Virus record (IMG/VR): IMGVR_UViG_2874968258_000002
Length of the DNA: 29,210 nucleotides
Strand: one strand, 5' to 3'
Source of the DNA: a virus
Lineage: Duplodnaviria; Heunggongvirae; Uroviricota; Caudoviricetes
Shown here in pieces: positions 27,001-29,210 of this stretch. The position numbers are program-made. Each line of letters starts with the position of its first letter. The first letter of the stretch is position 1.

Positions 27001-29210
27001 TCCGCCTTCGGTTACTTATTGTGCTCATGCACAGGGAGAGGCGGGTACAAATCTCTGTACCCTGACGTCTTCCGGACTGCCAGCCCCATCGTTTTTTTAC
27101 GCCCGCGAAAAATAAAAATTGTTTGTATGTGAGTATTGTAGCCAGCAAAAGCTCTTTCTTTGGTGGCTTATTGTTTCTAATAGATTTTGGGAGGTAGAAA
27201 TGGGAGGCCCAGCGAAAGCTGGGCCGAGCTTGTTACGCTGTCATTACTTCAGCATGATAACTAAAGCTATACATACTAGCACTACGGCTATTGGGCATAG
27301 ACCTAAATTGCCAAGTGCTGCGATTAAACCTGTAACGGCAATCACACGTGCAGACAGCAGGTCTGAGCCCTTTCTTAAAGTATCCATTGATACCTCCGTC
27401 AGGGTTTTTGCCGGTCTCTTGGAGAGTTGGGGGCAAAAGTTCAGACCCGTAGCACTTTCTTGTTCGCAGGTGAACGGCTGCTACGACCCAACTGTTCTGT
27501 AGGCATGAGCCAATTCTTACTTGTTAATACTTCTCAGAGGTATCCTATAAGTATCCTGGTAAAGCAAGATAGTTTGGATACATCTGTAATTCATTGAAAT
27601 CTGGTGGCCCCTGCTGGACTTGAACCAGCGACCAAGCGATTATGAGTCGCCTGCTCTAACCACTGAGCTAAAGGGCCTTGAGTGTGCAATAACAATACTT
27701 ATAAACCACGCAATAAACATGGGTAATGACTCCAACTTATTGATAGTGTTTTATGTTCAGATAATGCCCGATGACTTTGTCATGCAGCTCCACCGATTTT
27801 GAGAACGACAGCGACTTCCGTCCCAGCCGTGCCAGGTGCTGCCTCAGATTCAGGTTATGCCGCTCAATTCGCTGCGTATATCGCTTGCTGATTACGTGCA
27901 GCTTTCCCTTCAGGCGGGATTCATACAGCGGCCAGCCATCCGTCATCCATATCACCACGTCAAAGGGTGACAGCAGGCTCATAAGACGCCCCAGCGTCGC
28001 CATAGTGCGTTCACCGAATACGTGCGCAACAACCGTCTTCCGGAGACTGTCATACGCGTAAAACAGCCAGCGCTGGCGCGATTTAGCCCCGACATAGCCC
28101 CACTGTTCGTCCATTTCCGCGCAGACGATGACGTCACTGCCCGGCTGTATGCGCGAGGTTACCGACTGCGGCCTGAGTTTTTTAAGTGACGTAAAATCGT
28201 GTTGAGGCCAACGCCCATAATGCGTGCAGTTGCCCGGCATCCAACGCCATTCATGGCCATATCAATGATTTTCTGGTGCGTACCGGGTTGAGAAGCGGTG
28301 TAAGTGAACTGCAGTTGCCATGTTTTACGGCAGTGAGAGCAGAGATAGCGCTGATGTCCGGCAGTGCTTTTGCCGTTACGCACCACCCCGTCAGTAGCTG
28401 AACAGGAGGGACAGCTGATAGAAACAGAAGCCACTGGAGCACCTCAAAAACACCATCATACACTAAATCAGTAAGTTGGCAGCATCACCCCGATGTAGGT
28501 AATGACTCCAACTTATTGATAGTGTTTTATGTTCAGATAATGCCCGATGACTTTGTCATGCAGCTCCACCGATTTTGAGAACGACAGCGACTTCCGTCCC
28601 AGCCGTGCCAGGTGCTGCCTCAAATTCAGGTTATGCCGCTCAATTCGCTGCGTATATCGCTTGCTGATTACGTGCAGCTTTCCCTTCAGGCGGGATTCAT
28701 ACAGCGGCCAGCCATCCGTCATCCATATCACCACGTCAAAGGGTGACAGCAGGCTCATAAGACGCCCCAGCGTCGCCATAGTGCGTTCACCGAATACGTG
28801 CGCAACAACCGTCTTCCGGAGACTGTCATACGCGTAAAACAGCCAGCGCTGGCGCGATTTAGCCCCGACATAGCCCCACTGTTCGTCCATTTCCGCGCAG
28901 ACGATGACGTCACTGCCCGGCTGTATGCGCGAGGTTACCGACTGCGGCCTGAGTTTTTTAAGTGACGTAAAATCGTGTTGAGGCCAACGCCCATAATGCG
29001 TGCAGTTGCCCGGCATCCAACGCCATTCATGGCCATATCAATGATTTTCTGGTGCGTACCGGGTTGAGAAGCGGTGTAAGTGAACTGCAGTTGCCATGTT
29101 TTACGGCAGTGAGAGCAGAGATAGCGCTGATGTCCGGCAGTGCTTTTGCCGTTACGCACCACCCCGTCAGTAGCTGAACAGGAGGGACAGCTGATAGAAA
29201 CAGAAGCCAC

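Follow-up and report, generated by a model that had tools for sequence, protein, structure and literature searches.

The two IS1 elements upstream of the ileY tRNA gene in the window (the entire 29,210-nucleotide stretch of DNA that was analyzed) are likely to represent an (IS1)2 dimer made by the IS1 transposase, accompanied by the loss of ~ 1,005 bp of native DNA that included the probable promoter region of ileY, with the consequence that ileY is probably poorly expressed. Structures of this type, in which an IS dimer is accompanied by an adjacent deletion, are already known. The 8-bp spacer between the two elements, CCGATGTA, consists of 8 of the 9 bases of the target duplication that belongs to the second element, those nearest to the IRR end of that element.

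Structure of the IS1 pair upstream of ileY

The features of the window are listed in Table 1. The IS1 elements are numbered in order of their position. Copies 1 and 2 form the tandem pair, copy 1 being the one proximal to the tRNA gene, and copy 0 is a third element in the opposite orientation.

Table 1 Positions of the features in the window.
Feature	Position	Strand	Remarks
Prophage-borne tRNA, CAU anticodon	6181-6257		ARAGORN
IS1 copy 0	15525-16292	+	Opposite orientation; simple insertion with 8-bp duplication GTGATTTG
attL, 46-bp repeat of the ileY 3' part	16603-16648	.	1 mismatch to 27602-27647
ileY, tRNA-Ile2, anticodon CAU	27602-27677	-	ARAGORN; RefSeq tRNA-Ile annotation of the identical sequence
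Remnant of the native ileY upstream region	27678-27721	.	44 bp; TATAAG at -26 to -21 from the mature 5' end
IS1 copy 1	27722-28489	-	768 bp; IRR 27722-27744, IRL 28467-28489
insB' (copy 1)	27737-28240	-	
insA (copy 1)	28159-28434	-	
Promoter-like site CTGCCA-16-TATGAT in the IRL of copy 1	28455-28482	-	Points through insA and insB' to the tRNA
Spacer, 8-bp IRL-IRR bridge CCGATGTA	28490-28497	.	
IS1 copy 2	28498-29210	-	Same orientation as copy 1; truncated at 713 bp by the window end

The left end of copy 1 is the IRR (GGTAATGACTCC...) and the right end is the IRL (...GGCAGCATCACC). The terminal repeats of IS1 are ~ 23 bp in length and imperfect (IRL GGTGATGCTGCCAACTTACTGAT, IRR ATCAATAAGTTGGAGTCATTACC). 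The minus strand of copy 1 contains open reading frames of 91 and 167 amino acids, corresponding to insA and insB', and the Pfam matches in the source locus comprise Zn_ribbon_InsA, HTH_Tnp_IS1 and DDE_Tnp_IS1. The IS1 copies exhibit 98.4–99.6% DNA identity to annotated IS1 elements of phage P1, phage SfIV and thousands of plasmids.

Copies 1 and 2 exhibit the layout of an IS dimer, that is, two complete copies in direct orientation with the IRL of one facing the IRR of the other. A single base differs over the 713 bp that the two share in the window, hence the copies are not a trivially duplicated stretch. The description of two co-oriented IS1 elements 8 bp apart in the sequence-only reading is borne out by the coordinates, as is the placement of the first element 44 bp upstream of the tRNA: because the tRNA is encoded on the minus strand, 44 bp separate its 5' end (27677) from the IRR end of copy 1 (27722). 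That reading was also right that the tRNA-proximal element has no target duplication, since the left flank of copy 1, ATAAACATG, differs from the right flank, CCGATGTA.

Origin of the spacer and extent of the deletion

The origin of the spacer was predicted before the right flank of copy 2 had been seen. The sequence CCGATGTA is found once in the native locus, inside the ygaQ pseudogene, 1,005 bp rightward of the left junction. The junction of a hypothetical copy 2 inserted into ygaQ was built and then used as a search query. A single IS1, with the same orientation and the 9-bp duplication GCCGATGTA, occupies precisely this ygaQ site in E. coli O121 strain 201805972. The O121 element and copy 2 occupy the same site; the former lacks the private SNP of copy 2, and identity of site is all that the comparison establishes.

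The right flank was obtained from the source chromosome, record CP032523.1 (5.03 Mb), which matches window positions 13069-29210 with 100% identity and no mismatch. In this record, copy 2 is complete at 768 bp, with GCCGATGTA and then ygaQ sequence on its right, in agreement with the prediction. Copy 2 is therefore an IS1 resident in the ygaQ pseudogene; its target duplication, GCCGATGTA, is 9 bp long, and the left copy of that duplication has been trimmed to 8 bp. In the coordinates of the native locus (L001), native DNA ends at 5932 and restarts at 6937, and the ~ 1,005 bp that have been lost extend from ileY -44 to the first base of the copy 2 duplication. The lost ~ 1-kb segment was not found elsewhere within the window, and the exact junction of the pair had no match in the genome-contig or metagenome-contig collections. 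The proposal that IS1 sits at the position of the tRNA promoter thus holds insofar as the native upstream region has been replaced, but not as a plain insertion, because ~ 1 kb was deleted and a joined dimer is present.

IS copies are classic trouble spots of sequence assembly and the window ends within copy 2, both of which could be taken to mean that a long-read assembler wrote one IS1 twice. However, copy 2 runs on into ygaQ in the chromosome record, one base distinguishes it from copy 1, and an assembler would not invent a spacer that is the exact trimmed target duplication. Moreover, 16 other complete E. coli records, contributed by many laboratories, show the same layout and the same spacer rule, as do a Kluyvera draft assembly and many plasmids, so that an assembly artefact is hardly credible.

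Tandem IS1 pairs in other genomes

Other tandem IS1 pairs were sought with a 151-bp junction query, and single-piece matches of 149–152 bp were taken as tandem pairs. Such matches accounted for 21 of the best 40 in complete E. coli genomes and for 28 of the best 40 in plasmids, the latter from E. coli, Klebsiella, Citrobacter, Enterobacter, Pantoea and Kluyvera. A search of species-representative genomes with a general tandem junction yielded one match, in Kluyvera ascorbata, with an 8-bp spacer. Besides the window pair, 17 pairs were read over their whole length, of which 16 are in E. coli records and one is in the Kluyvera draft. Their spacers are 6 bp (one pair), 7 bp (four pairs), 8 bp (eleven pairs) or 9 bp (one pair) long.

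A target duplication is still visible on an outer flank in 12 of the 17 pairs as well as in the window, and the spacer corresponds to its IS-proximal part. Five pairs are termed in situ, in the sense that the same 9-bp duplication is present on both outer flanks and the spacer comprises its last 6–9 bases; the two copies are free of mismatches in all five. The spacer corresponds to the trimmed duplication of the left copy in four pairs, and to that of the right copy in three pairs and in the window. The outer genes of these seven one-sided pairs are usually truncated and are not neighbors in other genomes, and when the window pair is included, mismatches between the copies occur in six of eight (up to 52). 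One further pair, located beside blaTEM-1, has its own 9-bp duplication around the whole dimer. The spacers of the remaining four pairs have no traceable relation to the flanks; the Kluyvera pair, the left flank of which is not readable, is among them.

These pairs also bear on the alternative that two ordinary events produced the structure, namely a normal IS1 insertion at or in a resident duplication, or homologous recombination or unequal crossing-over. IS1 favors AT-rich DNA, and the H-NS-bound, AT-rich spacer upstream of ileY draws it: an IS1 is present a few hundred bp from ileY in five of the 5,426 complete E. coli genomes, and O121 carries two IS1 elements near ileY. In addition, the pair designated L014 has a full 9-bp spacer sequence that is repeated three times, an arrangement obtainable by normal insertion or unequal exchange. 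Nonetheless, a normal insertion creates an 8–9 bp duplication around the new copy, and copy 1 has none. To give spacers of 6–8 bp, the staggered cut would have to reach into the resident IRR. The left flank would then retain IRR bases, and an ordinary insertion hence cannot give these spacers; such bases were found in none of the in-situ pairs. Recombination between direct IS copies, for its part, leaves one copy rather than two copies 8 bp apart. Ordinary events are thus a very unlikely source of the pair, and transposase-mediated dimer formation is preferred.

Three isolates collected in different countries share a dimer with the spacer CTGATGCC, and each has its own right flank, which indicates that dimers are inherited and that their outer ends continue to cause rearrangements. 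Taken as a sequence survey, these data suggest that tandem IS1 dimers are common and stable in enterobacteria.

The ileY gene and the integrated island

The identity of the tRNA was established by comparison with the 5,426 complete E. coli genomes. ARAGORN called the gene Met(CAT), but assignment as tRNA-Met was rejected since RefSeq genomes annotate the identical sequence, at the ileY locus, as tRNA-Ile. The CAU anticodon of this ileY-type tRNA-Ile2 is presumably modified to lysidine. Position 6 is the sole difference between ileY and ileX, and the flanks of the gene match the locus between ypjC/pinH and ygaQ-glaH. In some E. coli genomes, the match with the window extends to 27721 and the sequence then enters ygaQ-glaH. 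Other E. coli genomes carry the same island at ileX, beside mug-rpoD, and diverge from the window exactly at the tRNA 5' end.

The island is 11 kb long, with attL at its left end and ileY at its right end, and encodes an integrase, a D5-like primase, a ClpP-protease/major-capsid fusion, a lambda tail I-like protein and a DUF1441 protein. Because the island is bounded by 46-bp repeats of the 3' part of the tRNA, the ileY gene here, judged by its sequence, is a hybrid that combines a 5' part of host origin (U6) with an island-borne 3' part (G67).

Probable loss of the native promoter and expression of ileY

In genomes that lack the IS1, the sequence upstream of ileY reads ...AAACATG followed by ATGATCATATG..., also printed as AAACATG followed by ATGATCATATGATG..., and the match between the window and these loci stops exactly at 27721. 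The native locus contains two predicted promoter-like sites, TATGAT at -53 to -48 and TAGATA-16-TATCAT at -236 to -209. The latter, within an H-NS-bound spacer, was assigned to ileY in a genomic-SELEX study of the RpoD holoenzyme (PMC3946193), the assignment being a sequence pick under a binding peak. The accessible portions of the supplements of the Cappable-seq paper PMC4782308 and of PMC4681348 yielded no entry for an ileY transcription start. Both native candidate sites are upstream of -44 and absent from the window. The probable native ileY promoter region is thus deleted, and all candidate promoter sites with it.

The suggestion in the sequence-only reading that an IS1-derived outward promoter now drives ileY did not find support. 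Two consensus scans of the IRR end together with the 44-bp remnant detected no sigma-70-like outward promoter. The sole candidate is a weak hybrid read by hand, TTACCC-17-TATAAG, in which TTACCC comprises the last 5 nt of the IRR and 1 nt of the flank; it has 8 of 12 consensus matches and is below the thresholds of both scans. A hybrid promoter of this kind, with a -35 element supplied by the IRR and a -10 element in the 44-bp remnant, might drive ileY at a normal or raised level. Fusion promoters of IS1 are documented in PMC9330008 (citing Prentki et al. 1986), TATAAG is given as the -10 element of some constitutive promoters (PMC3946193), and the native -35 sequence at the same spacing to TATAAG is poorer (ATCATC, 2/6). 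On the other hand, the match is 3/6 plus 5/6 with a -10 element that lacks the conserved final T, TATAAG is a candidate -10 element by sequence alone in the native locus, and the better native candidates were those upstream of -44, now deleted. Normal or raised expression from the hybrid promoter is consequently judged unlikely.

A scan across the IRR-8 bp-IRL junction found no promoter apart from the known promoter-like site of the IRL. IS promoters are weak in general (PMC12428005). The IRL site of copy 1 is directed at the tRNA, and the scan found no intrinsic-terminator-like site between the two, so that read-through from IS1 into ileY may be possible. Such read-through should be weak, given the weakness of IS promoters and the polarity that IS1 exerts via Rho-dependent termination. 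The ileY gene would then be transcribed solely by read-through of the weak, InsA-repressed IS1 promoter or promoters, or from the weak hybrid promoter. Probably, ileY either relies on read-through from IS1 or is almost silent, and read-through from the insA promoter, or near-silence, appears at least as likely as transcription from an outward hybrid promoter.

A weak or silent ileY would be tolerated because ileX and the prophage-borne CAU tRNA remain. The ileX gene is intact in the source genome and has a TATAAT promoter. In K-12, ileY can be deleted without complementation whereas ileX cannot (PMC11480407).

Discussion

The geometry of the junction points to a dependence of the dimer on the IS1 transposase. 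The IRL end of copy 1 is joined to a position 8 bp beyond the IRR end of copy 2, with the trimmed duplication CCGATGTA as the bridge. The joining may proceed by the same single-strand cleavage and end-to-flank attack as in the formation of IS1 circles, in which the 3'-OH of one IS end would attack the same strand a few bases beyond the other end; attack beyond the end of a second copy would generate a tandem dimer. IS1 is among the copy-out-paste-in ISs that form circles with abutted ends, and its transposition depends on spacer length. Junctions of IS1 circles reportedly contain 6–9 bp of flanking DNA, which the 6–9 bp spacers of the surveyed pairs match, and the abutted IRL-IRR junction is the same in circles and in the pair. 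The IS1 circle (Turlan and Chandler 1995; Sekine et al. 1997; Shiga et al. 1999), however, links the two ends of one excised element, whereas here two chromosomal copies are linked.

In IS dimers, the IRs of two, sometimes distant, copies are joined and a site-specific deletion results (PMC9333248; PMC9330008). As in (IS30)2, (IS21)2 and the dimers of IS911, IS2, IS3, IS150 and IS256, the IS1 pair consists of complete copies arranged head to tail, the facing ends are a few bases apart, these bases derive from the flank of one end, and the intervening DNA is deleted (PMC9333248; PMC9330008). IS1 is absent from the list of elements with demonstrated dimers in PMC9333248. The differences concern the bridge, which is 6–9 bp long in the IS1 pairs (8 bp at this locus) and 2–3 bp in the IS30 and IS3 families, and the junction, which in the known dimers is reactive and often provides a promoter whereas no junction promoter is predicted for the IS1 pair. 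The known dimers are also highly unstable, whereas those of IS1 are apparently inherited stably in lineages.

The structure shares with IS1 adjacent deletion (intramolecular replicative transposition), as outlined in PMC9330008 (citing Turlan and Chandler 1995 and others), the loss of flanking DNA from an IS1 end without a duplication. The classical adjacent deletion leaves one IS copy, whereas the present locus retains two, separated by a trimmed duplication. The IS1 end lies at about -35 of the gene upstream region, as it does in the IS1 fusion promoters that activate blaTEM and acrEF. In contrast to the fusion promoters, there is no good -35/-10 pair here, and promoter loss rather than gain is likely.

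In this genome the effect would be small, with a redundant ileY probably silenced or weakened and the ygaQ pseudogene shortened further. The junction, nevertheless, keeps a readable record of the mechanism, a duplication trimmed to 6–9 bp, which recurs in genomes and plasmids. If upheld in a full survey, this record would provide field evidence for circle-type end joining of IS1 between separate copies, and would account for many IS1-bounded deletions, some of which are next to resistance genes such as blaTEM-1. For annotation, tandem IS1 copies should not automatically be dismissed as an assembly error; where one of two adjacent copies lacks a duplication, that copy marks a deletion. A broader and more tentative reading, to which we give less than even weight, is that (IS1)2 dimers with 6–9 bp bridges are long-lived and heritable results of IS1 end joining that are widespread on enterobacterial chromosomes and plasmids, that they could represent a largely unremarked route for the removal of DNA between adjacent IS1 copies, which here took away the ileY promoter, and that ileY is expressed only via insAB' read-through. 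If this were true, the supply of the ileY tRNA would be tied to IS1's own InsA-repressed promoter.

Two routes to the dimer may be envisaged. In a one-step route, an IS1 already present at ileY -44 would have been joined to the ygaQ copy ~ 1 kb away, with loss of the intervening DNA. In a two-step route, a dimer would have formed in ygaQ and an adjacent deletion would then have proceeded from the outer IRR end of copy 1. A single IS1 at -44 of ileY was present in none of the 5,426 complete E. coli genomes, and an in-situ IS1 dimer in ygaQ in none of the genome collections searched. An inversion between copies 0 and 1 was also considered and rejected, because their flanks are not reverse complements and copy 0 has a clean 8-bp duplication of its own. 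The sequence of copy 0 is identical to that of copy 1, which makes it a possible source lineage of the latter. This identity, together with the SNP that distinguishes copy 1 from copy 2, leans slightly toward the joining of two separate copies.

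IS1 insertions in the ileY-ygaQ region and IS1 dimers in other E. coli records

The ileY-ygaQ region carries IS1 in E. coli O121 201805972 as well. There the spacer and gene hold two copies in inverted orientation, separated by 404 bp, and one of them occupies the exact site of IS1 #2, the second copy of the direct tandem dimer upstream of ileY in the window. The AT-rich, H-NS-bound ileY-ygaQ region is therefore a recurrent IS1 target.

Three isolates, E. coli PCN061, S1-INA-02-B and CH4784, have one IS1A-IS1B dimer in common, with the left flank CTGATGCCA (one base differs in CH4784) and the spacer CTGATGCC; the right flank is different in each isolate. 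This dimer is inherited, and its outer end goes on rearranging the adjacent DNA near the fim region. A further dimer adjoins blaTEM-1 on plasmid pEC1515-3, where the two IS1 copies are divergent (42 mismatches). Because it is bounded by a 9-bp duplication, GGCGTATCA, the plasmid dimer seems to have transposed whole, as a single unit.

The island at ileY and the third IS1 copy

Features of the window, with coordinates
Feature	Position	Strand	Remarks
tRNA cluster, prophage-type	5947-6257	(-)	Gly(UCC), Thr(UGU), Arg(UCU), 77-nt CAU-anticodon tRNA
IS3-family transposase	9999-11272		beyond the tRNA cluster
IS1 #0	15525-16292		inverted relative to the dimer; sequence identical to IS1 #1
Integrated island	16603-27677		11 kb; each end marked by a 46-bp repeat of the 3' portion of ileY
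attL	16603-16648		native ileY 3' half
ileY	27602-27677	(-)	hybrid gene

The integrated island has genes for an integrase and a D5-like primase, for a ClpP-protease/major-capsid fusion, and for two further proteins, one lambda tail I-like and the other a DUF1441 protein; from these genes it looks like a phage satellite. A second copy resides in the source genome at ileX, and relatives use several further integration sites. Following integration ileY is a hybrid gene whose acceptor stem contains a U6·G67 wobble pair, its native 3' half, which is the A67 version, having been displaced to attL.

IS1 #0 and the dimer bracket the island and ileY in a compound-transposon-like layout. IS1 #0 is flanked by its own target duplication, GTGATTTG, however, so nothing points to past movement of this segment.

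The prophage-type tRNA cluster adjoins terminase, lysis and DnaB-like genes, and its CAU-anticodon tRNA is tRNA-Ile2-like. An AIDA autotransporter fragment also lies beyond this cluster.
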